From a virus (Duplodnaviria > Heunggongvirae > Uroviricota > Caudoviricetes), in IMG/VR virus record IMGVR_UViG_3300032007_000002: a stretch of 64,000 nt of DNA. One strand, written 5' to 3'. The position numbers and the translations under genes are program-made. A model generated the notes under the pieces. It saw only the letters and a list, made by a program, of their open reading frames with translations, did no database searches and was not told where the DNA came from. How positions within the stretch are numbered: the stretch's first letter is position 1; the number at the start of each line of letters is the position of its first letter. Below, piece by piece: positions 695-57,316 of the stretch.

Positions 695-1078
695 ATGAAT
701 TCACCAACATTCGACATTGTTATGCTTATCGTCAACATCGTGATTGCGATATCAACGGCCGCAACCGCAGCATTAGTTATCATTAAAATGATAGCCGACC
801 GTCGTGAAAAACTTGACAAATATGAACGTGCTGTTACCGAAGGGTATGTATATGATAGCGGTGTTAAGACATTTGCGGGCATGTGTCATCACTTCATATT
901 ATTTTCCATTACGAGACACACTGATGGGAAAAGTTACGAATATGGGTTCCATAAAGTAGTCCGCGATTACAATATTAGTAACCCCAAAGAATTTCTTAAA
1001 TTTGTGGTCAACCATCAAGCGGAAACTGACGATCCATTCACATTTGACCAAGCGAAGCATCTGTTGAAGCTGAAATAA
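695..1078 (+). CDS. hypothetical protein with N-terminal transmembrane helix
   Basis: ORF track; hydrophobic N-terminus (IVMLIVNIVIAISTAATAALVII); first gene of the AT-rich island. Confidence 0.5.
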   Translation: MNSPTFDIVMLIVNIVIAISTAATAALVIIKMIADRREKLDKYERAVTEGYVYDSGVKTFAGMCHHFILFSITRHTDGKSYEYGFHKVVRDYNISNPKEFLKFVVNHQAETDDPFTFDQAKHLLKLK

Positions 1079-1096
1079 CAAACAGATATCGACTGT

Positions 1097-1127
1097 TTCG
1101 AAGACGACCAATGTTGGCCGTCTTTTT
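1097..1127 (+). terminator. putative rho-independent terminator
   Basis: Hairpin aagacgacc...ggccgtctt followed by ttttgcg just after the stop at 1078. Confidence 0.4.
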
Positions 1128-1236
1128 TGCGTAAGGATGTACCCATCCAAAGTGCTACGGGACCGATCTAGCGACCTAAAGTATCCTCCGATCCGTATGA
1201 AACTATAAACTATTGAATGTTCGCTAACAATCTGTA

Positions 1237-1839
1237 ATGAGGTGTCCTTTGGCAGAGCCTTTAATGCGATGGGATTTAATCAACGCCTATATCAAGAAAT
1301 ATGGGTTCAAATCGTTCCTTGAAATCGGTCACGACCAGGGCATTGCGTTTAACCGAGTTGAAATTGACCTGAAAGAGTCGGTGGACCCGGATGAGGCAAC
1401 TCACCCGACTTATGTGATGTCCAGCGATGATTTCTTTGAAAAGTATTCTACCAAATACGACATCATTTTTATTGACGGCTTGCACGAACATGCACAAGTT
1501 GACCGCGACATAAAAAATGCGTTGGTACATTTGAATAAGGGTGGCGTTATAGTTATGCACGACTGTCATCCAATTTCGGAGGAATGCCAACGGCATACTT
1601 TCGTATATCCCGGAGGTGAATGGACCGGTGATTGCTGGAAAGCCTATGTTAAAAACCGTGCTTCACTCCCGTATGATATGTATGTATGGGACCATGACTG
1701 GGGGTGCGGTGTCATAAATACTAATATGCAACGCAGTTCCGAATTACCACAATTACCAACAATTATGGCAGACATGGAATATGCGGATTTCGTTGCACAT
1801 CCAGAATGGATGAACTTTGTTACCGAATTGCCAATGTAA
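1237..1839 (+). CDS. class I SAM-dependent methyltransferase (TylF/MycF-like O-methyltransferase fold)
   Basis: Motifs FLEIGHDQG (glycine-rich SAM loop) and IIFIDGLHEH (IDGDH-like); ~200 aa. Confidence 0.55.
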   Translation: MRCPLAEPLMRWDLINAYIKKYGFKSFLEIGHDQGIAFNRVEIDLKESVDPDEATHPTYVMSSDDFFEKYSTKYDIIFIDGLHEHAQVDRDIKNALVHLNKGGVIVMHDCHPISEECQRHTFVYPGGEWTGDCWKAYVKNRASLPYDMYVWDHDWGCGVINTNMQRSSELPQLPTIMADMEYADFVAHPEWMNFVTELPM

Positions 1840-1909
1840 TATAAACCCTGATGCCACATTTGGGGTCTTTTGTTGCGTTCTGAATGACTAGATCTATAAA
1901 CTGATAATT

Positions 1910-2659
1910 ATGAGCGTAGTTATAAGTTTGACAAGCCACACCAAGGAACGGCTGAAAGATGTCGGCCAATATTTGTTTGCGAGCGTGTTCCGGTATAAGT
2001 TGAAGGGTGTTCATGTAGTTTTGACCCTTTACAAGGACGATGTGCCGAACATGCCGGAAGACCTTAAAACGATGGTCAAGATGGGGTTGGTGGAGCTTAT
2101 CGTAGCCAATCAGAATTTGCGATGCCACTTAAAATACTTCTACGCGATGAAGAAATATCGTGATGTTCCAATCATCACGATTGATGATGATTCGGTCTAT
2201 CCTCCGCAAATGGTTCCCGATTTACTTGCTGCTATGGAGAAATACCCTGGTTGTATCATCGGGCGAAGCGGGTGCCTACTGGATGTAAACAAGACCTACA
2301 TCCAGAACTTTTGCATCAACTCCGGGGTTGACAATATCAGCAAATGGAATGGTCACGCGGACGAACCCCGTATGGATTTGAATGTGGAAGGATATGGTGG
2401 CATCTTGTACCCGCCGGACATCTTGAAGGTTTCAGACGATTACATACCGGAAATTCTTGAAACCCCGCGTGCAGATGACATCTACCTGATGGTCATTGAG
2501 AACCGGTTGAAGATAAAGAGGGTTGTGCCTTATTACCCATATCCTAAACTACTCGTATGCACGAAAGGCTTTGATGCAATCTCAACCAAGCGGGACAATG
2601 TTCAAATGATTGATTCGGTTGTTCAACAATTTAAAGGAGATTTAGTCAGCAATCCATAA
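1910..2659 (+). CDS. putative glycosyltransferase (paralog of 3399..4043)
   Basis: Shares ISLTS..R, PIITIDDD (DxD-like) and DL.TM..GL.E with 3399..4043. Confidence 0.45.
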   Translation: MSVVISLTSHTKERLKDVGQYLFASVFRYKLKGVHVVLTLYKDDVPNMPEDLKTMVKMGLVELIVANQNLRCHLKYFYAMKKYRDVPIITIDDDSVYPPQMVPDLLAAMEKYPGCIIGRSGCLLDVNKTYIQNFCINSGVDNISKWNGHADEPRMDLNVEGYGGILYPPDILKVSDDYIPEILETPRADDIYLMVIENRLKIKRVVPYYPYPKLLVCTKGFDAISTKRDNVQMIDSVVQQFKGDLVSNP

Positions 2660-2670
2660 GCGAGTGTCAG

Positions 2671-3357
2671 ATGAATTTAAATGATTTAACTTTATTAACG
2701 GTATCATTTAACAACAATTTGCTAACCGGAATGATGATTAAATCGTTCTTTAAGCAAGTGGGTTTAGTTAAGGTCGTCATTGTAGATAACGGCACCAGCA
2801 TTGCCATTGGTGACTCTTTTAAACGGGTTTTCACTGTTGTAGATAATATGCACCAGAAAATTACTGGCGATTATCGGCAATGTTCAAAAAATCATTGTTC
2901 AACCATTGATTATGCACTGAAACATTTAATAATGACCGACTGGGTTTTGCTAGTCGACAATGACATATTGTTTAAGCCACAAACAAAGGAATACTTAAAA
3001 CTGTTTGATTGTGCAAAATATGATTGCGCCGGGGAAATTGGTTGGGATGACGCTCCGCCGGCCAGGTTATTCCCGTATTTTTGCTTAATCAATGTTCGTA
3101 AATTTAATGACGCCAAGTTGTCGTATTTCGATGATAATAGATGTATTGGTCCCGGAAGCAAAGAGGATGGTCCAAGAGGGGTAAATACTTCTTGCTGGTA
3201 TAAAGATACAGGATGCTCATTTTATGAAGATATTAAAGATAGCTGGGCAATAAACGAAATCAAATTGACTTCATACATTGCACACATGAAATGCACCGGC
3301 GAAGGAAATAGAGATATAGCAGGGTTTTTAAAACAAAATCAAATGCTATGGAAATGA
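2671..3357 (+). CDS. family 2 (GT-A) glycosyltransferase
   Basis: LTLLTVSFNN, VVIVDNGT, LLVDNDILF motifs typical of GT2. Confidence 0.65.
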   Translation: MNLNDLTLLTVSFNNNLLTGMMIKSFFKQVGLVKVVIVDNGTSIAIGDSFKRVFTVVDNMHQKITGDYRQCSKNHCSTIDYALKHLIMTDWVLLVDNDILFKPQTKEYLKLFDCAKYDCAGEIGWDDAPPARLFPYFCLINVRKFNDAKLSYFDDNRCIGPGSKEDGPRGVNTSCWYKDTGCSFYEDIKDSWAINEIKLTSYIAHMKCTGEGNRDIAGFLKQNQMLWK

Positions 3358-3398
3358 GTATATACTCTGTGACGGTAATTTAGATTCAAAGGAGTGTC

Positions 3399-4043
3399 AT
3401 GTCTAACACCAATGCCATCATATCCCTCACATCATGGAAAGCTCGCATTACAACAGTAGGGCTTACCCTATTCAGCCTATTAAAATGCTGTCCAGGATTT
3501 CGTATTGTATTATGCTTATCAACTGAGGAGTTTCCCGGGAAAGAAGCCGAATTACCTAACGATTTGCGGACAATGCTCAGTGCCGGCCTGTTTGAAATTT
3601 TATGGACTGGCAAAAACATTAAATCATTTAAAAAATGGATATTTACTGCACAGCGTTATCCAACTATTCCCATCATCAGCGCCGATGATGATTGTATTTA
3701 CCAACGCAACTACGCGAATGAATTGTATCAGGCTTGGATAAAAAACCCCTTATGTTGCTATACTATACATAAATGCCCGGTATCGGGATTTCAGCATGGA
3801 CCAGCTACATTATATCCACCTGGCGTCGCATCCAACTTTATGATTGAGCATTTAACCGCAAATGTCTTAAGCACTGCACACGATGATGTGTTTTATGGTA
3901 TGTGTTTAAATAAACTAAACATACCAATAATTGAAATCAGTAAAACTGTGCCGTATGTATTTCATGACACCACCGATGCGTTGAGCGATGGGATAACCAT
4001 GAATTTATTTAAATCCATGGAAATCATTTCGCGTGAAATATAG
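3399..4043 (+). CDS. putative glycosyltransferase (paralog of 1910..2659)
   Basis: IISLTSWKAR, PIISADDD, DLRTMLSAGLFE align with 1910..2659. Confidence 0.45.
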   Translation: MSNTNAIISLTSWKARITTVGLTLFSLLKCCPGFRIVLCLSTEEFPGKEAELPNDLRTMLSAGLFEILWTGKNIKSFKKWIFTAQRYPTIPIISADDDCIYQRNYANELYQAWIKNPLCCYTIHKCPVSGFQHGPATLYPPGVASNFMIEHLTANVLSTAHDDVFYGMCLNKLNIPIIEISKTVPYVFHDTTDALSDGITMNLFKSMEIISREI

Positions 4044-4383
4044 CGCCACCTACCGACCCGCACACTTCCACCCACGCCGCGGGAATGGCCTTCCTGTACC
4101 TAACGCACCGTTTCCGCCTGCCCATGACGACGTCCGGCTCCAGTGCATCCCGGTCCAGCAGGTCCCGTCTGACGCGCAGCAGGACTTCCCCTACATAGAT
4201 CCGCGGAGTAGGCGCCAGGAATACGCAGGGATAGATTTCCCTGGCCTCCCTCGGCCGGCGCAGGTTGAACTCCTCGTAGTGGTCCCGGTAGCACTTTCCG
4301 ATGCCCGGGACCAGGCCGTCCCGCAGGATCCCCGGCAGGTTCTCCTTACATGTCCCGTGGTAGTAGTATCTATTTCGCGACAT
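4024..4383 (-). CDS. minimal ADP-ribosyltransferase-fold protein resembling the Tpt1/KptA C-lobe (YHGT motif)
   Basis: MSRNRYYYHGTCKENLPGILRDGLVPG matches the Tpt1/KptA LYHGT...I...GL motif (H-Y-E ADP-ribosyltransferase superfamily); ORF track 4024..4491 trimmed to internal ATG at 4383. Confidence 0.4.
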   Translation of the reverse strand: MSRNRYYYHGTCKENLPGILRDGLVPGIGKCYRDHYEEFNLRRPREAREIYPCVFLAPTPRIYVGEVLLRVRRDLLDRDALEPDVVMGRRKRCVRYRKAIPAAWVEVCGSVGGAIFHAK

Positions 4384-30238: not shown

Positions 30239-30274
30239 TGAAATATAGCAAAATACGCGGATTTGCTATATTTC
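30239..30274. promoter_or_regulatory. divergent pair of promoter-like motifs
   Basis: tgaaatatagcaaaa (minus gene) and atttgctatatttc immediately followed by ATG 30275 (plus gene). Confidence 0.55.
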
Positions 30275-47212: not shown

Positions 47213-48495
47213 TTGTAGAGGTGCGGGATCATGACATCGTTGCGTATTGTGACGCCAGGTCTAATGATGTCCCCGTAGTCAATGAACGCCGGATCAATAT
47301 CGTCCCCGCCCAGGGTTTCCATGCCGAATTGCAACGAGACTGCACGTACATTATAGCCCTCAGCGCGGCTTCTCCCGCAGGAATGGCATTCATCGCAGTC
47401 GCAAATCACCACATGGAACAACCACTGGCGACGATCGGCAAAGACGCTCTTGATCGCCATGTCCCCGCTGGCCCCGTAGATTATCGCACGTTCCTCATCG
47501 GTGAACTTGGCATACACCGTGCAGGCAATCGAGGGCGCTTCGCAGCTGAGCGGGAGACCGCCCAATCCGTGCTTCTCCACGAACTCGGTAACCATGGCCT
47601 TGTCCCACTTGATGAGCGGGAACGTATAGGACGGCTTGCGGGCAACCTGGGTCTCGAACTCCGGCGCATGGTTTCCGTACAGGTGGCTGAGCGCAAACGC
47701 GCCGTCATAGAGTTTCCGCATGTCCTCGATAAACGTCTCGGACTGGTCCCCCTTGACAATCCCCATCTGCACCTCGTCCAGCAGGGACGTGATTTGCGGG
47801 TTGATGTAGGCAAGGCTGAACGTATTGACCGGCTGCTGGATGAAACCCTCGAACTTGCCGCCATAGTTACACGCCCCGGCAGGGAAATTGATGCCGCGAT
47901 ACATAGGCATCAGGATGCCCGGACCCTTGTAGGTCTTCGATATTGCGGCAAGCATCGTATATGCGAGTATCGGGGCAACTTTAAACTCGGCGTTGAGCCA
48001 GTTGTAAATCGGGAATACGACCTTACCCTCGTCCAGGTTCTTGAGAACGAGCGCCGTGCTGTCCATGCCTCCGGTAAACAGGACGCCTACCGCATTGGTC
48101 GGCTGTCCGTGTTCCCATTCGGGATTGAGCGTCCTGATTGCCGATGTCAGGCGGTCCGGGTAGCCATCCATCCTGGAAAACGCATTCTTGACCATGTCCT
48201 CGACCACATCCACTTGCGGGTAGCTTGTGCTCCAAAAATTGTAGGTATCTTTCTGCATGTGGCTAATCATGGTGAACCCGAGCGCATCCATGACTTCCTG
48301 CTTGCGCTCGCGGTAGAGAATGGGTACCCGGCGGTCAAACACCTTGGTGTCGATGTCTAGTCCCTGCATGCGGATGCCGAACCGCTCCCTGAACGGGAAC
48401 CTGGCAACCCATTCATTCGCAATCTTTTCTGCACGAACGGGAAACCCGACGGAATTATTCGGTTCCATCAGTTCCATGTCAGCTTTACTGCTCAT
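47209..48495 (-). CDS. PP-loop ATP pyrophosphatase superfamily protein, QueC-like, with C-terminal zinc-binding cysteine cluster
   Basis: VGVLFTGGMDSTALVL (SGG.DST PP-loop) and CDCDECHSC; start MSSKAD after GGAGGAAGCCG; co-transcribed downstream of the beta-class methyltransferase. Confidence 0.5.
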   Translation of the reverse strand: MSSKADMELMEPNNSVGFPVRAEKIANEWVARFPFRERFGIRMQGLDIDTKVFDRRVPILYRERKQEVMDALGFTMISHMQKDTYNFWSTSYPQVDVVEDMVKNAFSRMDGYPDRLTSAIRTLNPEWEHGQPTNAVGVLFTGGMDSTALVLKNLDEGKVVFPIYNWLNAEFKVAPILAYTMLAAISKTYKGPGILMPMYRGINFPAGACNYGGKFEGFIQQPVNTFSLAYINPQITSLLDEVQMGIVKGDQSETFIEDMRKLYDGAFALSHLYGNHAPEFETQVARKPSYTFPLIKWDKAMVTEFVEKHGLGGLPLSCEAPSIACTVYAKFTDEERAIIYGASGDMAIKSVFADRRQWLFHVVICDCDECHSCGRSRAEGYNVRAVSLQFGMETLGGDDIDPAFIDYGDIIRPGVTIRNDVMIPHLYK

Positions 48496-49291
48496 CGGCT
48501 TCCTCCCGGAAGATAGTCTTGAGACTGCCATGGAAGTCGCCCTTGTTCATCTCGGCGGCCAGCTTGACGATGCGCGTCCCGGCAATCTCGAAGTATTCCT
48601 TGTCGATTTCCATGCCGATGAACCTGCGGCCTTCCTTCAACGCAGCAAGGCCGGTGCTGCCGCATCCCATGCAGTTATCGAGGACGACATCGCCTGGTTC
48701 CGTGTAGGAACGGATAAGCCAGGAAAGAAGTTCCACGGGCTTTTCCGTGCGGTGTTCGGACTTGGACGGGTGCGGTTTCGGAATGTCGATGATTGACACC
48801 GGGTATTTCTGGGTGCTGCCCTTGCGGACGTCGTCCGTGGCCTTGAACTTGCCGTAGTTGTTGTTCACCATGTCCTTGGACATGTAGGACTTGCCGCGGC
48901 CGTGGAGGGGCTTCCCTTCGTGGAACTGCGGGTTGAACTTCGGCATGGACTTGTAGAACACGGCAAGCTGCTCGTGGGAACGGAGAGGCATGCGCTTGGC
49001 GTTCAGGAACCCGGTGACGAGCTTCTTGTTCCAGACCAGGTCGTATCGGAACAGCTTGCGCCTAGACTGAACCAGGTCAACGTAGAACAGGCCCTGGGCG
49101 AACAGGACGATGGCCCCGTCATCCTTGATGACACGCTCATACTGTTCCCATAGGGGTTCGAACGGGATGCGCTTGTCGTGCGGGTTGTGCGTGACGCCGT
49201 AAGGGAGGTCGCACAGGATCATATCGACCGACTTGGGGGCGAGCTTCTTCATCTCCTCCAGACAGTCTCCGAAAAACAGCGAATAGGACAT
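48485..49291 (-). CDS. beta-class N6-adenine/N4-cytosine DNA methyltransferase (CcrM/HinfI-like motif order IV then I)
   Basis: ILCDLPYG (DPPY-type motif IV) near the N-terminus and VVLDNCMGCGSTGLAA (motif I) near the C-terminus. Confidence 0.8.
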   Translation of the reverse strand: MSYSLFFGDCLEEMKKLAPKSVDMILCDLPYGVTHNPHDKRIPFEPLWEQYERVIKDDGAIVLFAQGLFYVDLVQSRRKLFRYDLVWNKKLVTGFLNAKRMPLRSHEQLAVFYKSMPKFNPQFHEGKPLHGRGKSYMSKDMVNNNYGKFKATDDVRKGSTQKYPVSIIDIPKPHPSKSEHRTEKPVELLSWLIRSYTEPGDVVLDNCMGCGSTGLAALKEGRRFIGMEIDKEYFEIAGTRIVKLAAEMNKGDFHGSLKTIFREEADEQ

Positions 49292-49355: not shown

Positions 49356-51110
49356 TTACCAGTTGTTCTTGGTCGAGGCGTCTTTCTTGGGCTGCTGGAC
49401 TGCATCGAGCACAGCGCCGGCGAGCTGCTTGACGTTTTCCTGGGAGAGCGCCTGCTGGCCCTGGTCCTGCTGGGCCTGCTGCATGCCCTTGCCAATCATC
49501 TTGCCGGCAAGAGCACCGCCGAGAAGGCTGTTGACCGCATTGGGGAGGCTGAACCCGAGCGAATCCGTAAGGCCGTCCGAGACCTGCTTGATGGTCTTGG
49601 TGACGCTTTCGGTGAGCTTTGCCGGACCGCCGTCGTAGATGGTGATGTTGCCAATCTTTTCCATCGGCTTTGCGGCTGCAGCGGTCATTGCCGGGAGCTG
49701 TTCGAAGAACTTTTCCGTGGCCTTGATGCGCATTTCGGTAATCGGGGCTTCGCCATACTTGTTCATGGCGTCGGCCTTCTTGTCGATTGCTTCCGCTTCC
49801 GCAAGACCCTTGGCCTTGATGGCGTCAGCTTCTGCGAGACCGGTTGCCTTGATTGCGGATGCTTCGTTGTTTGCCTTGTGGAGGTTTGCGTCCGCGATTG
49901 CGGTGATGCCCTTTGCCTTCTGTTCCTGGTCGTAGAGGTCACCTTCGGCGGACTTCTGGCGCTGGACGAGACCTGCGTCTGCGTCCTTGGAGCGGCGATA
50001 AAGGTCGGCTTCGGCGTCCGTCTTTGCCTTGTAAAGTTCGGCATCGGCGTCCTTCTGGGCCTTGTAATAGGCAGCGTCGGAATCGTGGATCTGTGCCTTG
50101 TAGTTGGCTTCTGCCTTCTTTTCGATTTCGGCCTGGAGTTCGCGTTCGCGGACAGACACCTTGCGTTCGCTGAGCTCGATATTCTTTTCTTCCGCCGCGA
50201 TGTTCGCTTCCGCGTCGGCGATGTTGATGAGCTTCTGCTGCTGTTTCAGCTTGATTTCGTAAGCGGTGTCTGCATCGGCCTTCTTGGTCTGTTCAATCTG
50301 GGCGAGTTCGTGCTTCTTGACTTCGAGGTCATTCTGGCGCTTGGCAATGGCAAGACCGTTTTCGACTTCGACATCGTTTGCACGCTTGTCGGCTTCGGCC
50401 TTTGCGATACGGATGTCCGCATCAGCAGCTGCCCTTGCGTTGGCTGCTGTCTTAAGAATGGCCGTGGCGCGTTCCGTACCGAGTTCCTTGATCATGCTGT
50501 GCTTGACACCTTCGCCGTCGATATATTCGTCGTCGAACTTCTGAATGTTGAAGGTATCGAGACGGATGCCGAGCTTTTGGAGGTCCTTGGTTGCACTTGC
50601 GTTCACGAGGCGGGTGATTTCATCGCGCTTGCTGACGAGGTCTTCAATCTTGATCTGGCCGATAACTTCACGCAACGAACCGTCCAAGATATTGTCAATC
50701 ATGCTCGCAATGCTGCTATTGACCTTCCTGGACGAAAATTCGGACTTGTCACTAATCTTGCTCGTATCGCCGGATTCCATGTTAAGGAAGTTCTGTGCGG
50801 CGATTGCAATATGTTCCGCAGTCGCATCAACCTTTGCCGTAGCAACCGCATCAACCTTGACAAACATGCAGTCGATGGTCGGGACCGGATCGGTCTTGTT
50901 GATGAGGATGGTCATGATCTTCAAGTCAACGATGTCAAGTCGTTCGATGAACGGGATGCGGAAGCCGGCGCGGCCCACGAGGACCTTCGGCTTTTCACGC
51001 CAGCCGGAAATGATAAATGCCTTGTCAGGCGGTGCCTTGACGTAGCCGACCATGAAAATGATTGCCAGGATTACTGCTCCGGCAATGATACAGATGAGTG
51101 GAATAGACAT
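49356..51110 (-). CDS. SPFH/band-7 flotillin-like protein (YqiK/FloT type) with long Ala/Glu/Lys-rich coiled-coil
   Basis: N-terminal transmembrane helix, SPFH core (AFIISGW..KVLVGRAGFRIPFIERLDIVDLKIMTILI), then ~250 aa of AEA/KA repeats; AAGAGGA SD. Confidence 0.75.
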   Translation of the reverse strand: MSIPLICIIAGAVILAIIFMVGYVKAPPDKAFIISGWREKPKVLVGRAGFRIPFIERLDIVDLKIMTILINKTDPVPTIDCMFVKVDAVATAKVDATAEHIAIAAQNFLNMESGDTSKISDKSEFSSRKVNSSIASMIDNILDGSLREVIGQIKIEDLVSKRDEITRLVNASATKDLQKLGIRLDTFNIQKFDDEYIDGEGVKHSMIKELGTERATAILKTAANARAAADADIRIAKAEADKRANDVEVENGLAIAKRQNDLEVKKHELAQIEQTKKADADTAYEIKLKQQQKLINIADAEANIAAEEKNIELSERKVSVRERELQAEIEKKAEANYKAQIHDSDAAYYKAQKDADAELYKAKTDAEADLYRRSKDADAGLVQRQKSAEGDLYDQEQKAKGITAIADANLHKANNEASAIKATGLAEADAIKAKGLAEAEAIDKKADAMNKYGEAPITEMRIKATEKFFEQLPAMTAAAAKPMEKIGNITIYDGGPAKLTESVTKTIKQVSDGLTDSLGFSLPNAVNSLLGGALAGKMIGKGMQQAQQDQGQQALSQENVKQLAGAVLDAVQQPKKDASTKNNW

Positions 51111-51422: not shown

Positions 51423-52118
51423 ATGCAGACAAACGCCCGGGAAGCCTATTTAAGCTCGTTAAAAGAAGAATATTCCGTCGCAATCGCCAGGACGCGGGAC
51501 AGCATAGTCCAGCTGTCCGGCAACGACGCGGCAAAGACCACCAAGCTGTTCCTCGAATCCAGACTGGGACGACTGGAACGCAGGCACAAGGAACTCGGTA
51601 TGGAGGTTTCCTCGACGGCAAACCAGGAAATCAAGACCGCCGAACCGAAAGTTACCCCATACGAGACCGATTTAGACGCAATCCGGGATGCCGTATATGG
51701 CATGACCGGTAAACTGGTCCCGTATTCAATGATGCCGAAATACTGGAAAGAGCTGACCACCCGGTGCGCAGCAATCAACATGCTATCAGGCGAATATGCC
51801 ACACCGGACACGCTCGGCAAGCTGAAAAAGATGCAGCAAGACCTCGACGACCTGGTGAACGACATCAAGAACGAGGCGTCGGTAAACCCGTATGGGTACA
51901 ATGCAGCATTTTGTGGGGTTTCGCTGGAACCGGGCCTATCATTCGAAAACAAACCGCAAACTAGCCGACTCAAGCACAACAAAAAACGTCGCAGGGGGAT
52001 GTCCTACGACGAGAGGAAGGCTGCGTTCGATGCAGGTGTCAAAGTGTCGGTCCAGGACAACTCCCCGTTATGGGACGTCCCGGGCGGCCTCAGTATCAGG
52101 CCGGAATCGAACTGGTAG
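51423..52118 (+). CDS. hypothetical protein
   Basis: ORF track. Confidence 0.5.
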   Translation: MQTNAREAYLSSLKEEYSVAIARTRDSIVQLSGNDAAKTTKLFLESRLGRLERRHKELGMEVSSTANQEIKTAEPKVTPYETDLDAIRDAVYGMTGKLVPYSMMPKYWKELTTRCAAINMLSGEYATPDTLGKLKKMQQDLDDLVNDIKNEASVNPYGYNAAFCGVSLEPGLSFENKPQTSRLKHNKKRRRGMSYDERKAAFDAGVKVSVQDNSPLWDVPGGLSIRPESNW

Positions 52119-52623
52119 TGTCTTCCACAAAGCGGCCATCCTTCTTGCGGAGGATGCGCTGGTTGGAACTGCCGCGGAACCTCAATGCGAGGTCCCGTTT
52201 TTGTTTGATGAACGGGCCGTCAACGAGCACGTCGGCCAGTTTCAGGATTTCCCCCGTAACGCCCCGCACATGCTTCCGGCCACCCGGATATAGGTCGCGC
52301 TCCATCACGTAGCCGGTATAGAGCCAGATGTTCTTCTCCGGGAGTTCCGCCCTGAACTTCCTGAGAAGTTCGAGCACGGCCGGCTGGTTCTCCTCCTCCA
52401 TCGGTTCACCGCCGAGGACTGTAATGCCCGCTATATAGGGCTTCCGGCATGCCTCGATAATCTCGTTAGCCTCAATTTCGGTGAACTCCTTGCCGTATGA
52501 GAAGTCCCATGTAGCCTCGTTGAAACAGCCCGGACAGTGGTTGCGGCACCCGGACACGAAGAGCGTCACGCGGCAGCCGTCGCCGTCCACGATGGACATG
52601 AAGTCAATCTTTCCGTAATTCAT
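52096..52623 (-). CDS. nrdG: anaerobic ribonucleoside-triphosphate reductase activating protein
   Basis: GCRVTLFVSGCRNHCPGCFN (radical SAM CxxxCxxC of NrdG type), ~175 aa, downstream of nrdD. Confidence 0.8.
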   Translation of the reverse strand: MNYGKIDFMSIVDGDGCRVTLFVSGCRNHCPGCFNEATWDFSYGKEFTEIEANEIIEACRKPYIAGITVLGGEPMEEENQPAVLELLRKFRAELPEKNIWLYTGYVMERDLYPGGRKHVRGVTGEILKLADVLVDGPFIKQKRDLALRFRGSSNQRILRKKDGRFVEDTTSSIPA

Positions 52624-52626
52624 ACA

Positions 52627-54537
52627 TTAGTCCTTATATAAAGAAACCCCGACAGCTTTTGCAAATAGGCCACACCGATTTTTTCTCGGTTTGGTTTCCG
52701 GCCCAATAAATATATAATTGGGGGCAATAACATGGGCCTTAATTAGTTTAACCCATTCAGCAAATGTTATGTCAGACATTTCGTCCGGTGTTCCCTTCCA
52801 ATGCTCATACTGTTTGCCAAACGGTGGGCACACTACAACAACCTTGTTTGTGTGAATGACCTGCGCAAGAACATCCCGATTAGTCCAACCATACCATTTA
52901 CAAAAATTTACGTTGATGTCGTATGCTTCCACATCAGGCGGTAAGCCACGGTCCTCAAACCATCGAGTTACACCTCTTACTATACCACCGAACCCGGCCA
53001 TCGGACAATATACCCCAGCACTTAAGTCAACACCGCTCTCCTCGATAATTTTCAACAGCACAGTTTCGTCCAGGGCGGTTACCTTTGGTGCAATTTTTGC
53101 TATGGTAAACCGATCGAGAACCTTCGTTGCATAATCGCCCGAAATCAATGACTTGATATGTCGAGTGCAAAACGCATCATACTTTCCCGAAATCAGCGAA
53201 TCGTTGATCGTCTTAATCATATTCTGGACAGCACGTTCCAATTTTGCATCATCATGCCATGCGGACCGAGGATCCATATAGCCAGGAACGTAGCAATCCC
53301 ATATAGGATGCGCAGCCGGCCATTTAGTGGTTCCCGGAAAATCTGTCATGACGCAATGGTTCTTGATCAACTCCGGCGTAAGGTCAATGTTAAATACAGC
53401 TGAAATGAACCGTAATACATCACAACCAACCACAAGCGTCACATTATTCGTCAAAATACACTGTAGCTTGGCGTATTCCTTCGTATCAGGAATCTGCATA
53501 TATTTATATAGATGCTCACCCTTGATTTCAAACAGCCTATCCCCTATTCGGAAATCCGGGAAGAACCAATGTTCCTCCCCGGCAAAGGAGTATTCTAACT
53601 TTACCTTGGGGTGATATTCAAAATCTACGTCCATGCAGCGCAGGAAATTATAGAACGCATACTCATACGAAGAATCGAAAGATACCCCATTTACCGTAAA
53701 CTTATGCCACATTTTTGACTGAAACTCGGGTGTTTGCGAAAATGAACGAACACCAAACCGTTCCTGGCAAGTTTGCTGCATTTGCTGCACATTATGATAA
53801 TTCTTGTCGCCATATTTATCTGCGCATGTCTTATATTGTCCTTGCTCACGCAATTCGGCGGATGCCCAATTATGCCTAACACCAAATTTTGCGAGGCAAG
53901 TCATTTCCCGTTTTTCGCGTATCTGGGCAATCTTTTCCTCATCAAATGCAGCCAGCTTATCGCGAACCTTTTGACGGTGTTCGGGATTATTCATTGCATT
54001 GTTTCGGCTACGCAATTTTGATGTACATTCCGGCGACCCACATACATTATGGTAGTGGGTTCCCATCCATTTTGCCGGTCCACCGCAAATTTCGCATTTA
54101 CCGGGCGCTATGCCCATATATTTATTATAATATTGCTCGACCGTAATGTCTGTATGTTTTTTATTTAAATGACGGTTTAATGTGAGCAAAGACATATACC
54201 CGTGCCCACACAGGGCACAGCAAAACTTATATATTATTTGCCGTTTTGGTTTGATCTTATCCGCATGTCGGCAGGCTTTGCCATATCGGGCACGCATCGT
54301 TTCGTGCTGGAGTTTGCGGACACAGGTGGGGTCATTGCAGGTATCATAATACCCATGATAGTTGGTAAACGCACATTGTTTGCCACAATACGGGCACACA
54401 TGTTCAGTCGGATCTACATACGTATCATAATACGTCTTATAGGGCATCTTATGGGTTCGCTGAATGTGATTGGTAAACCCGTTCAACGAATATACCTCTC
54501 CGCATTTCGCACATGTATATTTGATTTTCATTTTCAT
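52627..54537 (-). CDS. multidomain protein: N-terminal C2H2-like zinc fingers and KFGV repeats, PD-(D/E)xK (Vsr/DUF559-like) nuclease domain, C-terminal gamma-class-like DNA methyltransferase domain; homing-endonuclease-like insertion between nrdD and nrdG
   Basis: CAKCGEVYSLNGFTNHIQRTH and CALCGHGYMSLLTLNRHLNKKH; repeats K..T..KFGVR../ERFGVRSFSQTPEFQSKM; SSYEYAFYNFL...FFPDF...RLFEIKGEHLYK (D...E.K); C-terminal PMAGFGGIVRG (motif I-like) then VVVCPPFG (motif IV-like); AT-rich relative to flanks. Confidence 0.55.
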   Translation of the reverse strand: MKMKIKYTCAKCGEVYSLNGFTNHIQRTHKMPYKTYYDTYVDPTEHVCPYCGKQCAFTNYHGYYDTCNDPTCVRKLQHETMRARYGKACRHADKIKPKRQIIYKFCCALCGHGYMSLLTLNRHLNKKHTDITVEQYYNKYMGIAPGKCEICGGPAKWMGTHYHNVCGSPECTSKLRSRNNAMNNPEHRQKVRDKLAAFDEEKIAQIREKREMTCLAKFGVRHNWASAELREQGQYKTCADKYGDKNYHNVQQMQQTCQERFGVRSFSQTPEFQSKMWHKFTVNGVSFDSSYEYAFYNFLRCMDVDFEYHPKVKLEYSFAGEEHWFFPDFRIGDRLFEIKGEHLYKYMQIPDTKEYAKLQCILTNNVTLVVGCDVLRFISAVFNIDLTPELIKNHCVMTDFPGTTKWPAAHPIWDCYVPGYMDPRSAWHDDAKLERAVQNMIKTINDSLISGKYDAFCTRHIKSLISGDYATKVLDRFTIAKIAPKVTALDETVLLKIIEESGVDLSAGVYCPMAGFGGIVRGVTRWFEDRGLPPDVEAYDINVNFCKWYGWTNRDVLAQVIHTNKVVVVCPPFGKQYEHWKGTPDEMSDITFAEWVKLIKAHVIAPNYIFIGPETKPRKNRCGLFAKAVGVSLYKD

Positions 54538-54568
54538 AGATACCCCAGCAAATTATACTAGATGTCTT

Positions 54569-54583
54569 GGAAATATAGCAATA
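54569..54583 (-). promoter_or_regulatory. conserved phage promoter-like motif upstream of the inserted nuclease/methyltransferase gene
   Basis: ggaaatatagcaata about 32 nt upstream of ATG 54537. Confidence 0.5.
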
Positions 54584-54618
54584 ACAGTTTATAATGTCAA
54601 CCCAAATATCAAAAACGC

Positions 54619-54652
54619 ATCCGCCGGTGGCGGATGCGTTATTTAACTGATG
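54619..54652 (-). terminator. rho-independent terminator after nrdD
   Basis: Minus strand: acgcatccgccaccggcggatgcgt followed by ttttgatatttgg. Confidence 0.6.
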
Positions 54653-54661
54653 ATTTGACAA

Positions 54662-57220
54662 TTAGATGTTGTGCCGGTCGCCCAGTTCTTTCACCTTGCC
54701 ATCATTCCAGGACAGTTTAATAGTCTTCCTGGGTGACCCGGTTAAATATCCCGTGATACGGCGGACTCGGATGAAATACTTCTCATCCTTGCACCCGCAC
54801 TTGGGGCACACATTGTCGATAATGCCGTGATAGCCGCACTTGATGCAGTCGTCGCTATCCATCGTGACGGTGAAATAGCCGAGATTGCCATTGTACATCG
54901 CGTCGATCGCGGCAGCGACGGCTTCCACGTTCTTGGTCAAGTCGCCGTTCAGCTTGTAGTAGAAGATATGCCCGGCGTTGGTGAGCGCGTGGAACGGGGC
55001 CTCCACCTTGATCTTGTCGTCGAGTGACACGTCGAGGGAGAAGTCCATCATGTGGGAATTGGTATAGTAACCCTTTCCGAAGATGCGCTGGAGGTTGACA
55101 TCAGCCAGCTTCTTGTTGTCGCCGAACTTCTTGGCGTCGATTGTAGCGAAGCGGCCGGCGACAGCTTCCGCCGGCGTGGCGAAGCAGGACCAGTTCATGT
55201 GCGTCTTCTTCTGGGTAGCGTCGCAGAAGTCGCGGATGTGCTTGACGATGGACACGGCGAGCGCATCGACTTCGTGGTCAACGCCATAGGTCTTGCCGGT
55301 AAGGAGCGTAATGGTTTCCGCGATGCCGATATAGCCGATGGAGAGCGTGGACTGCTTCATCACTTCGGCGATATCATCGGAAAGTTCGTGTTCCTTGTCG
55401 TCGGACGTGAGATAAAGACCTTCCTGCATAGTGAACGGGAACGTCTTGTAAGTCTTCATGCACACGAGGTTGAAACGTTCAACCAGGCTTTCCTTGGCGT
55501 CGTCGAGCATGCCGTCGAGCTTCTCGAAGAACACCTTGATGCGGTCTTCCTCGGAGGACTTGGCGATACGGGCCTCGATGGCGAGACGCGGGAGGTTGAT
55601 CGTGTGGAAGGCAAAGTTGCCTCTGCCGGTAGTCTGTTCCGGGCCGTTGACATTGCCGATGACACGGGTACGGCAACCCATCGTCGCAACGGTGGTGTTT
55701 TCGACCAGCTTGCGAAGGTTGAGGACGCTGCCATCGAAGTCAACGACTTCCCAGATGTCGTCATGCGCGATGTGATATTCGTAGATCGGGAACTCGGTCT
55801 TTTCGACGCGTTCGACATTTTCGAACTCGTCCTTGCCGCGGACCTTGACAGCCAGAGGACCGTCAGTGACGACAATCGTCTTGGTCAGGTACTTGACGTA
55901 GGGCTTGTTGAAGGTGGAGTCCACGGACACGAAGTTCGGGTAGAAACGGCGGGCGAGGCAACGGATTGCCTGCTGCTTGAGGTCAAAGTTCGGGTCGGTT
56001 TCGAGGAACGTGTAGCCCTTCATGAGCTTGAAAATCAAAATCGGGAAGATGGCGGTAAGGCCGTCACCCATGCCTTCATACTGTGCACGCATGAGGTTCT
56101 TGCTGACCATGCGGCCGCAAGCGGACACGTCGAGACCGAAGTTGAGGGAGCTGAACGGGACCTGGTTGCCGGAACGGCTCTGCAAGGAGTTCAGGTTGTG
56201 GACAAGGGCCTCCATTGCCTGGTGGGTATCGCAGTCGGTGAACGCGATTGCCTTGTCGATACACTTCTTCGGGAACAGTTCATAAAGTGCGCTGGTCGGG
56301 GTGTTCATGGACACGCCGTCCTTGGCCAGGCCCTTCGTGATGCGCTTGATGGTTGCTTCGATATCGGCATCGCCTTCCTGCTGCAGGTACTGGGCAAATG
56401 CCGGATCTTCGGAATAGTCGGCCTTTGCGTTGAGCTGGATTGCGAGGTTCCTGCGGAAGGAACGGTCCACGAACGGGGCGAGCTCGAAATCGAAGTTGTC
56501 GCAGGCGATGCCGCCATACTGCTGGTTGCTCTGGAGCTGGAGGATGACCGCGGTAAGCGCAGCTGCGCTCTGGATGGTCTGTGCGGGGCGCTGGAAGCCG
56601 GTACCGGAGTCGAAACCGGTGCGGAGCTTCTTGCCGACAGGCGCAAAGAGGCAGTTGAACGTAAGGTCATACATGTTGAGGTCGTGGATGTGGAGGTAGC
56701 CGTTCGTATGCTCCTCCGCATACTTCTTGCTGACGTTGTCGAGCAAGTTATACATCTTGTTGGTTTCCGAGGCAATCTTGCCGTACATGCCTGCCGGGGT
56801 GTCGCCGGACTCGTTGGCGTTGTCGCGCAGGATGTTGGAACTCGGGAGATCCGCGTGCTTGATTTCGCGGACGGTCTTGATGATGGGGGAGCGGAGTGCT
56901 CTTTCGCGGTCGCGCCTGTTGCGCACGATGATGTATGCGTCATAGGCATCCATCGAGACTTCGCGTAAAACTTTCTTTACAGCGTCCGCGACGGAGTCGT
57001 TGCTCACACACTTCTGCTTCATGTCATACAGGATGTCAACTACGTCACCGGTGAGTTCTTCGACTCGTTCCTGGGTGAAATCTACTTTCGCATCGACAAG
57101 CGACTTACTGATACAGCGTTCAATCTTCAATGGGTCGAATTTCTGCCGTCCGCCGTCCTGCTTCTTAACCTGCCGCAGAAACGTGCGTTCCGACATCTTT
57201 TCATCCTTCGTATCGTCCAT
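54662..57220 (-). CDS. nrdD: anaerobic ribonucleoside-triphosphate reductase (class III) with N-terminal ATP-cone
   Basis: ATP-cone (LRQVKKQDGGRQKFDPLKI), ATMGCRTRV active-site region, C-terminal CIKCGYHG..CPKCGC zinc ribbon and glycyl-radical motif RVRRITGYLTG; AGAGGAAATTCC SD. Confidence 0.9.
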   Translation of the reverse strand: MDDTKDEKMSERTFLRQVKKQDGGRQKFDPLKIERCISKSLVDAKVDFTQERVEELTGDVVDILYDMKQKCVSNDSVADAVKKVLREVSMDAYDAYIIVRNRRDRERALRSPIIKTVREIKHADLPSSNILRDNANESGDTPAGMYGKIASETNKMYNLLDNVSKKYAEEHTNGYLHIHDLNMYDLTFNCLFAPVGKKLRTGFDSGTGFQRPAQTIQSAAALTAVILQLQSNQQYGGIACDNFDFELAPFVDRSFRRNLAIQLNAKADYSEDPAFAQYLQQEGDADIEATIKRITKGLAKDGVSMNTPTSALYELFPKKCIDKAIAFTDCDTHQAMEALVHNLNSLQSRSGNQVPFSSLNFGLDVSACGRMVSKNLMRAQYEGMGDGLTAIFPILIFKLMKGYTFLETDPNFDLKQQAIRCLARRFYPNFVSVDSTFNKPYVKYLTKTIVVTDGPLAVKVRGKDEFENVERVEKTEFPIYEYHIAHDDIWEVVDFDGSVLNLRKLVENTTVATMGCRTRVIGNVNGPEQTTGRGNFAFHTINLPRLAIEARIAKSSEEDRIKVFFEKLDGMLDDAKESLVERFNLVCMKTYKTFPFTMQEGLYLTSDDKEHELSDDIAEVMKQSTLSIGYIGIAETITLLTGKTYGVDHEVDALAVSIVKHIRDFCDATQKKTHMNWSCFATPAEAVAGRFATIDAKKFGDNKKLADVNLQRIFGKGYYTNSHMMDFSLDVSLDDKIKVEAPFHALTNAGHIFYYKLNGDLTKNVEAVAAAIDAMYNGNLGYFTVTMDSDDCIKCGYHGIIDNVCPKCGCKDEKYFIRVRRITGYLTGSPRKTIKLSWNDGKVKELGDRHNI

Positions 57221-57316
57221 GGAATTTCCTCTAAGTTGGGGTGGTGCCGGCGGTGCGGGAGGACCGTTTCCGTCGGCGGGTAGTCATTGTTTATAATAAA
57301 ATCGGTGCCAAGGTTA

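Follow-up and report, generated by a model that had tools for sequence, protein, structure and literature searches.

A probable homing-type cassette between nrdD and nrdG of a large T4-related phage, encoding a zinc-finger, nuclease and methyltransferase-like fusion protein

The gene described here lies in a 64,000-nucleotide (nt) stretch of viral DNA (IMG/VR record IMGVR_UViG_3300032007_000002; Caudoviricetes), hereafter the window, which derives from a large T4-related phage. Between nrdD and nrdG, and on the same strand as both, it carries an open reading frame (ORF) of 636 amino acids (aa) that joins a zinc module, a PD-(D/E)xK nuclease core and a methyltransferase-like module in a single chain (Table 1). 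An earlier note on this DNA, made by a model from the letters alone, had placed the ORF in the gap between these two genes, had called that gap a classic slot for homing endonucleases, and had remarked on its AT-richness against GC-rich flanks. All three observations hold: the flanking genes are identified by Pfam, mobC occupies the slot between nrdG and nrdD in T4 (PMC2988022), and the GC content of third codon positions (GC3) is 0.447 in the ORF against 0.778 in nrdD and 0.756 in nrdG, a gap of 0.3. The gene is strictly intergenic, following the stop codon of nrdD and preceding the start of nrdG without an intron or intein host, and the ATG of nrdG begins 3 nt past its stop codon. Its composition is foreign relative to its flanks, and the inserted segment as a whole has a GC content of 0.432 within a window of 0.549, where only one other stretch is comparably AT-rich. 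Genes of the same family in low-GC phages have a GC content of 0.30-0.36 in genomes of 0.31-0.38, that is, equal to or slightly lower than their surroundings, and for this reason an origin of the family in low-GC genomes is likely.

Table 1. Features of the nrdD-nrdG region, in coordinates of the window.
Feature	Position	Strand	Basis or detail
nrdD, upstream flank	54662..57220	minus	Pfam NRDD (E 7e-150), ATP-cone, Gly_radical
Inserted cassette, 2,038 bp (terminator, promoter and 636-aa ORF)	52625..54662	minus	blastn against L011
Terminator-like hairpin just past the nrdD stop	54614..54640	minus	12-bp stem with 8 GC pairs, T-run
Promoter	54572..54600	minus	TTGACA, 17 bp, TATATT, TG extended -10; 11/12 match
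ORF of 636 aa, zinc-finger / nuclease / methyltransferase-like fusion	52627..54537	minus	stop codon included
N-terminal zinc module, aa 1-175, presumed DNA-binding	54013..54537	minus	ligand conservation, AlphaFold2 (AF2) model, weak Pfam C2H2 matches
Three helical TC..(K/R)(F/Y)G (KYG) repeats, aa 213-268	53734..53901	minus	helical in the model
PD-(D/E)xK nuclease core, aa 280-388	53374..53700	minus	E292, D328 (FFPDF), E337-x-K339 (EIKG), K357, N364
Methyltransferase-like module, aa 389-636	52630..53373	minus	helical subdomain, then Rossmann core
Blocks of this module			KIAPKV 476-489; motif I VYCPMAGFGG 509-518; motif II EAYDIN (D540); motif III RDVLAQ 554-559; motif IV VVCPPFG 566-574
Ribosome-binding site of nrdG, AAGGA, inside the last codons of the ORF	52631..52635	minus	junction sequences
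nrdG, downstream flank	52096..52623	minus	Fer4_12 (E 5e-48)

The history of this insertion can be read from related phages, whose loci were recovered via nrdG and via homologues of the ORF and mapped with tblastn. In one lineage (A), contig L011 encodes nrdD and nrdG proteins that are 97 and 99% identical to those of the window and yet has an empty site: its nrdD-nrdG spacer measures 59 bp and carries its own terminator and ribosome-binding site, and in the window 2,038 bp replace these 59 bp. By blastn, the homology between the two (~95% at the nucleotide level) stops at the nrdD stop codon (54663) and resumes 1 nt before the ATG of nrdG (52624). Both states recur in a second lineage (B), which has a 67% identical variant of the cassette and in which L015 is empty and L013 and L001 are occupied, with nrdD genes that are 95-98% identical in nucleotide sequence; L016 is empty as well. 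The earlier note had proposed a comparison of this junction among related phages, and its outcome is that near-identical phages (L011, L015) lack the insertion. At the empty sites the native terminator and ribosome-binding site are intact and conserved, and there is no scar.

A third, swapped state is found in L013, a 213-kb contig in which the sequence on either side of an exchanged block shares 95-99% identity with the window. Within this block (window 57250..52520; 4.7 kb comprising nrdD, the cassette and the start of nrdG) the sequence matches the L001 lineage instead, at ~95% identity. The block begins ~30 bp ahead of nrdD and ends ~100 bp into nrdG, with sharp breakpoints that fall between 57254 and 57245 and between 52525 and 52513. 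It came from another lineage, in a pattern that would be expected of double-strand-break repair with co-conversion of the flanks. The pattern also fits the published observation that the cleavage sites of free-standing endonucleases lie hundreds to thousands of bp away from the endonuclease genes (PMC2988022). The same mosaic, with a window-type backbone and a lineage-B nrdD and cassette, is present in L012, L013 and L014. These IMG/VR contigs come from separate samples, so the recombinant exists as an established form in nature and is no chimera of one sample's assembly.

The earlier note had also considered that homologues might prove to be syntenic and non-mobile, and the family was found instead at several different sites. 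In L007 and L026, two unrelated phages of low GC content, the family member directly follows nrdD; in three phages of 280-370 kb (L009, L024, L027) it follows gp23, the major capsid gene, and one of these three contigs carries the nuclease-deleted P0053 described below; in L025 it follows the tail sheath gene, measures 811 aa and stands next to a SegE-like GIY-YIG gene. One might nonetheless suppose that the ORF is a non-mobile ancestral phage gene, lost by deletion in some lineages and AT-rich on account of its function, and the retention of the order AAA gene, nrdD, ORF, nrdG, Band_7 gene in several relatives down to ~53% identity is what such a history would leave. This account is largely refuted by empty alleles that carry intact native signals and no scar, by the occurrence of both states in two lineages with flanks 95-98% identical, by the sharp block replacement in L013, by the GC3 gap and by the presence of the family at three unrelated genomic sites, and we give it almost no credence. 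Since near-identical flanks surround empty alleles, a whole block has been exchanged in L013, GC3 departs so far from that of the neighbors and the family occupies several sites, we consider it very probable that the insertion is a mobile cassette of the homing type. Two side observations concern these loci. The SegE-like gene of L025 (7378-8208), of the GIY-YIG / NUMOD3 kind, overlaps the end of the 811-aa family member, such that two homing-type genes are stacked. In L007/L008 (2231-5951) and L017 (2435-5965), nrdD comes as two separate ORFs (of 498 and 482 aa in L007, where the ~0.8 kb between the halves holds ORFs of 42 and 218 aa), an arrangement that looks like an intron or another endonuclease insertion upstream of the family gene.

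Full-length homologues of the 636-aa protein number 30, with identities of 47-98%, and their conservation, together with a confident AlphaFold model of aa 1-389 (mean predicted local distance difference test score, pLDDT, 86.6), allows the N-terminal half to be dissected. The zinc module consists of a C2H2 finger (aa 9-29), a C4 ribbon (48-72), a second C2H2 finger (107-128) and a second C4 ribbon (148-171), and hence of a duplicated unit of one finger and one ribbon. Both fingers, which the earlier note had recognized, adopt the beta-beta-alpha fold in the model and coincide with weak Pfam matches to zf-C2H2_4 and zf-Di19; the two CxxC...CxxxC ribbons had been overlooked, and all four Cys of the second are invariant in 28 aligned homologues. 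The tandem KFGV repeats, given previously as three or four, number three, at aa 213, 237 and 256, and the fourth did not stand. They constitute the N-terminal half of a match to DUF7487 (PF24308) that spans aa 179-359 and scores 39.5 bits against a Pfam gathering cutoff of 27 (E 7.5e-10). The zinc array and the KYG repeats most likely bind DNA. Behind them, the Vsr-like PD-(D/E)xK core that had been noticed around FFPDF...EIKG does have a Vsr-like fold, with I-Bth0305I as its closest fold match; E292, D328 and K339 are conserved across the 28-sequence alignment, H342 is not, and sister clades such as P0061 show the pattern CDF...IEIQGSWTHG. Nuclease activity of the protein can accordingly be predicted, and this half belongs to the Hef-like/DUF7487 lineage of Vsr fold, whose members are annotated as putative homing endonucleases.

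The nearest known counterparts of this half are the Hef-like or EDxHD homing endonucleases, namely I-Bth0305I, Hef of phage U5 and F-LimIII/VII/VIII/X of Dickeya phage LIMEstone1, and the nuclease half of one distant relative of the window protein matches F-LimVIII. The EDxHD family, of which I-Bth0305I is the prototype and Hef a member, is defined by an E-D-x-H-D motif with a His general base (PMC3239194). The window clade departs from this family in three respects: its catalytic signature is E...PD...ExK and the His is not conserved; zinc fingers, ribbons and KYG repeats, with no NUMOD match, stand where the EDxHD family has a NUMOD helix-turn-helix; and a methyltransferase-like module of 250 aa has been added. 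In its genetic behavior the cassette resembles the seg (GIY-YIG) and mob (HNH) genes of T4-like phages, especially mobC/segH, with which it shares the nrdG-nrdD slot, an intergenic position, a sporadic distribution, co-conversion of flanks and integration in the phage transcription programme (PMC2988022 and the alleles described above); the nuclease folds are unrelated, however, and none of these genes has a methyltransferase domain. I-Ssp6803I, another homing endonuclease of the PD-(D/E)xK type, is encoded in an intron and is a small tetrameric enzyme without additional domains, from another branch of the fold. The earlier note had not recognized the domain combination as a described family. 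For the fusion this stands, as literature searches on DUF7487 and on homing endonuclease-methyltransferase fusions returned nothing relevant, but the nuclease half does belong to the Hef-like lineage. What is new is consequently the added module, which current libraries do not see and whose fusion to a homing endonuclease we did not find described.

This C-terminal module has a class I, Rossmann-like methyltransferase fold with motifs I to IV in the expected places, a point on which the earlier note had left room for the opposite outcome. The PMAGFGG of motif I and the CPPFG of motif IV, both of which had been picked out by eye, are invariant in 26 diverse members (aa 512-518 and 570-574, respectively), as is D540. 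PMAGFGG follows directly on beta1 (module strand 130-132), D540 ends beta2 (module strand 157-161), and the invariant CPPF stands immediately after beta4 (module strand 187-190), where relatives have TSPPW or TCPPY. The chain ends 62 aa past motif IV, and these residues form the last strands of the core. The module is very conserved and is also found behind other nuclease variants. An exhaustive profile search of 1.84 billion representatives returned only 199 relatives, the distant tier of which bears the motifs IFDPFSGFSGR and T(C/S)PP(Y/W), of the textbook DNA amino-methyltransferase type. Among 80 distant relatives, 45 match PF01555 (N6_N4_Mtase) over motif I with a best E of 2e-10, 39 match DUF7487, nine a restriction-endonuclease domain and four NUMOD3. 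These matches place the window protein in a divergent branch of a wider and so far undescribed set of phage proteins that join a nuclease to a DNA methyltransferase. For the window clade itself, membership of a methyltransferase family is transitive only, by way of the 45 distant relatives that match PF01555; a Pfam scan of the 26 diverse clade members at E<=10 found no methyltransferase family. The module shares with PF01555 the DPFxGxG and (S/C)PP(Y/F/W) motifs common to its superfamily and differs in its order of motif I before motif IV, which is not that of the beta class, and in having Cys at both the Asp of motif I and the D/N/S of motif IV. We hold the fold assignment to be highly probable, and the best reading of the module is that of a DNA amino-methyltransferase that has diverged strongly. 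A role in mismatch repair, as the Vsr-type partner of a methyltransferase, was considered and rejected, given that motif IV is of the amino and not the C5 type and that the gene is mobile. In 50,697 GenBank phage records, the 6.5-kb region had no megablast match and the C-terminal module alone had none even at E<=1, while tblastn of the whole ORF against GenBank phages gave a weak match in the nuclease region only; we found no sequenced phage isolate that carries the module.

Each half of the protein also exists without the other. L018 has the nuclease only, and in more distant phages the nrdD-nrdG slot is filled by a relative of 319 aa, which comprises finger, ribbon, repeats and nuclease and lacks the C-terminal module. 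Conversely, P0053 (413 aa, with 18 member sequences, after gp23) corresponds to P0061 minus the nuclease core, by a clean deletion, and retains the zinc ribbon and an intact C-terminal module. That the module persists without the nuclease in P0053 argues from sequence that it does something by itself, and such proteins may be comparable to an orphan methyltransferase that has outlived its restriction partner. The ratio of nonsynonymous to synonymous substitution rates (dN/dS) of the 636-aa ORF is 0.09 between the window and L004 and 0.08 between L013 and L001; it lies between 0.07 and 0.14 for each of the three modules taken separately and is 0.14 for nrdD. All three modules are thus under purifying selection, which speaks for a retained function. 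As a separate observation, seven representatives (P0124, P0126, P0130, P0133, P0140, P0142 and P0143) measure 270-335 aa and contain little beyond the C-terminal module; these may be stand-alone methyltransferase-like genes or gene calls truncated at contig ends.

Taking these data together, we lean, cautiously, towards the interpretation that the cassette encodes a homing endonuclease of the free-standing type, from the Hef-like/DUF7487 lineage, to which a methyltransferase module has been added for self-protection. The zinc modules and KYG repeats would recognize a long DNA site, and in a mixed infection the nuclease would cut the genome of a cassette-less relative in or near nrdD-nrdG, whereupon the broken genome, repaired by recombination with that of the carrier, would receive the cassette and flanking stretches of variable length. 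With S-adenosylmethionine (SAM), the methyltransferase module would methylate an exocyclic amino group (N4 of cytosine or N6 of adenine) at the recognition sequence and so shield the carrier genome from its own nuclease. This last role of the module is a tentative proposal, to which we assign somewhat less than an even chance. It is favored by the covalent coupling of the module to nucleases across the superfamily, by the conservation of the catalytic motifs, and by the comparison of occupied with empty alleles, in which neither nrdD nor nrdG shows a fixed difference that would provide immunity at the level of sequence: a single position in nrdD is fixed and is contradicted by L006, and none is fixed in nrdG. 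For the same reason, no target site could be proposed from fixed differences in these two genes.

The module could alternatively be cargo, carried by a homing endonuclease for the evasion of host restriction or some other benefit to the phage that keeps the selfish element from decay. Purifying selection as strong on all modules as on nrdD agrees with such a role, as does the retention of the module in P0053 after loss of the nuclease; moreover, nuclease-only relatives home into the same slot with no need of a methyltransferase, and the insertion itself may destroy the target. Against cargo, the module is nearly always fused to a nuclease, as the DUF7487 and restriction-endonuclease counts given above attest, which points to functional coupling, and the phage already has a canonical DNA methylase. 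The latter is encoded three genes downstream of nrdG (48485-49291, minus strand; PF01555 N6_N4_Mtase, E 8e-29) as a stand-alone gene of normal GC content, so that the phage modifies its DNA with or without the cassette. Cargo strikes us as an improbable explanation.

Returning to self-protective homing, a number of points weigh against it. The cassette replaces the whole of the native spacer, so that the carrier could be immune because its target is lost, with no need for methylation, and it is for this reason that the self-protection step is weak. A methyltransferase acting in trans would also protect the genome of a co-infecting target phage, which is opposed to homing. Cleavage of the empty allele, the target site and the methylation motif are all predictions, and all comparative data come from metagenomic contigs. 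Between occupied and empty alleles, divergence in the last ~100 bp of nrdD is two to three times that of the remainder of the gene (per 100 bp, 12-15 against ~5 in lineage A and 6 against ~2 in lineage B). This excess, which could reflect co-conversion or changes that confer resistance, is modest, derives from few sequences, is equaled by other bins and is at most suggestive. With respect to the module, profiles from Pfam, NCBIfam, PADLOC and PDB sequences gave no match for the window clade even at permissive thresholds, Cys replaces the motif I Asp found in the DPF of relatives, and motif IV begins with Cys instead of D, N or S. To our knowledge, no characterized enzyme has Cys at the first position of motif IV, and given these substitutions catalysis may be altered or lost.

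These same features, namely a module that sequence libraries fail to recognize and a Cys in each of the two key motifs, are what would be expected if a former methyltransferase fold had been put to a different use, whether in DNA binding, in recognition by base flipping or as a SAM-sensing regulator of cleavage; SAM-stimulated cleavage without methyl transfer is indeed known in Type IIG enzymes (Tth111II). The glycine loop, the acidic residue of beta2 and the PPF of motif IV are nevertheless invariant over 26-38 diverse members, Ser and Cys interchange at the first position of motif IV across the superfamily, as in SPPY enzymes, and the module remains intact in P0053, which has no nuclease. 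Such a reuse accordingly seems quite unlikely, and on balance we favor, without great assurance, the view that the module is an active methyltransferase.

Enzymes that combine a nuclease and a methyltransferase in a single chain are established among the Type IIG/IIL restriction enzymes (MmeI, BpuSI, Eco57I-like), in which the nuclease is likewise N-terminal to the methyltransferase. These are bacterial defence proteins of 900-1000 aa, in which a gamma-class NPPY methyltransferase is followed by a target-recognition domain, whereas the window protein has no domain after the core, bears N-terminal zinc fingers and is a phage product whose gene acts as a homing cassette. Nor is there a sequence relationship, in that Pfam N6_Mtase, NCBIfam and PADLOC gave no match. 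One could still imagine a weapon of Type IIG character, which would cut unmethylated DNA of co-infecting phages or of the host at many short sites and spread through surviving recombinants without site-specific homing. The absence of a target-recognition domain from a chain that ends ~60 aa past motif IV argues against this, as do the long array of zinc fingers and repeats, which suggests a long specific site, the placement of members precisely beside conserved essential genes with local conversion, as for seg, mob and hef genes, and the lack of any match to PADLOC or restriction-enzyme families. We judge the weapon less probable again than cargo. If the module does protect its carrier, the cassette would be a hybrid of a homing endonuclease and a single-chain restriction-modification enzyme. 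One speculative extension, which we think unlikely but not far-fetched, is a homing endonuclease endowed with its own epigenetic immunity, which cuts only unmarked rivals, stands as an intermediate on the way to single-chain restriction-modification, and has left proteins of the P0053 type as orphan 'antidote' genes against homing.

Homing endonucleases have both nuclease folds and selfish behavior in common with restriction enzymes. Were the module to methylate the enzyme's own site, this would answer a standing question about free-standing homing endonucleases, namely how a carrier whose target the insertion leaves whole avoids being cut, and would provide a concrete evolutionary bridge to the Type IIG restriction-modification enzymes. 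The family furthermore exposes a DNA-methyltransferase lineage that current sequence libraries miss, which bears on phage methylomes and on anti-restriction strategies. The natural empty, occupied and swapped alleles constitute an unusually clean record, and the homing hypothesis is directly testable with synthetic DNA.

The cassette also brings its own expression signals. The earlier note had described a terminator after nrdD and a separate copy of a phage promoter motif in front of the gene, and both are present as the hairpin and the extended -10 promoter of Table 1. Junction sequences identify the hairpin as part of the cassette and as unlike the native terminator of empty sites, and the native ribosome-binding site of nrdG at those sites is replaced by the cassette-borne AAGGA. 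The promoter includes the phage-wide motif TATTGCTATATTTCC at 54569-54583, which within three mismatches occurs 19 times in the window against 0.95 expected, usually in the form TTTGCTATATTTCA, and which is likewise found 5' of the 67% identical cassette in L001 and L012. The TTTGCTATATTTCA motif (TGnTATATT, of the extended -10 type) often forms close pairs on opposite strands, for example at 30239/30261, 35797/35847, 44789/44811 and 51353/51392, and its sequence suggests that such pairs may be divergent promoters. Some copies have AAATATAGTA 5' of them, and the two together make a palindrome.

Elsewhere in the window, a gene at 49356-51110 (minus strand) encodes a protein of 584 aa. Its L001 and L004 homologues have Band_7 and flotillin (Flot) domains, after which comes an extended coiled region rich in Ala, Lys and Glu; such a gene is unusual in a phage. 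A second AT-rich island spans window positions 700-4050, with a GC content of 0.385-0.46 against ~0.6 on either side, and contains five co-oriented ORFs on the plus strand (695-1078, 1237-1839, 1910-2659, 2671-3357 and 3399-4043), one with a Methyltransf_24 domain (E 2e-10) and another with a weak match to GT2 glycosyltransferases. This island may be another horizontally acquired block, perhaps concerned with sugar or surface modification.

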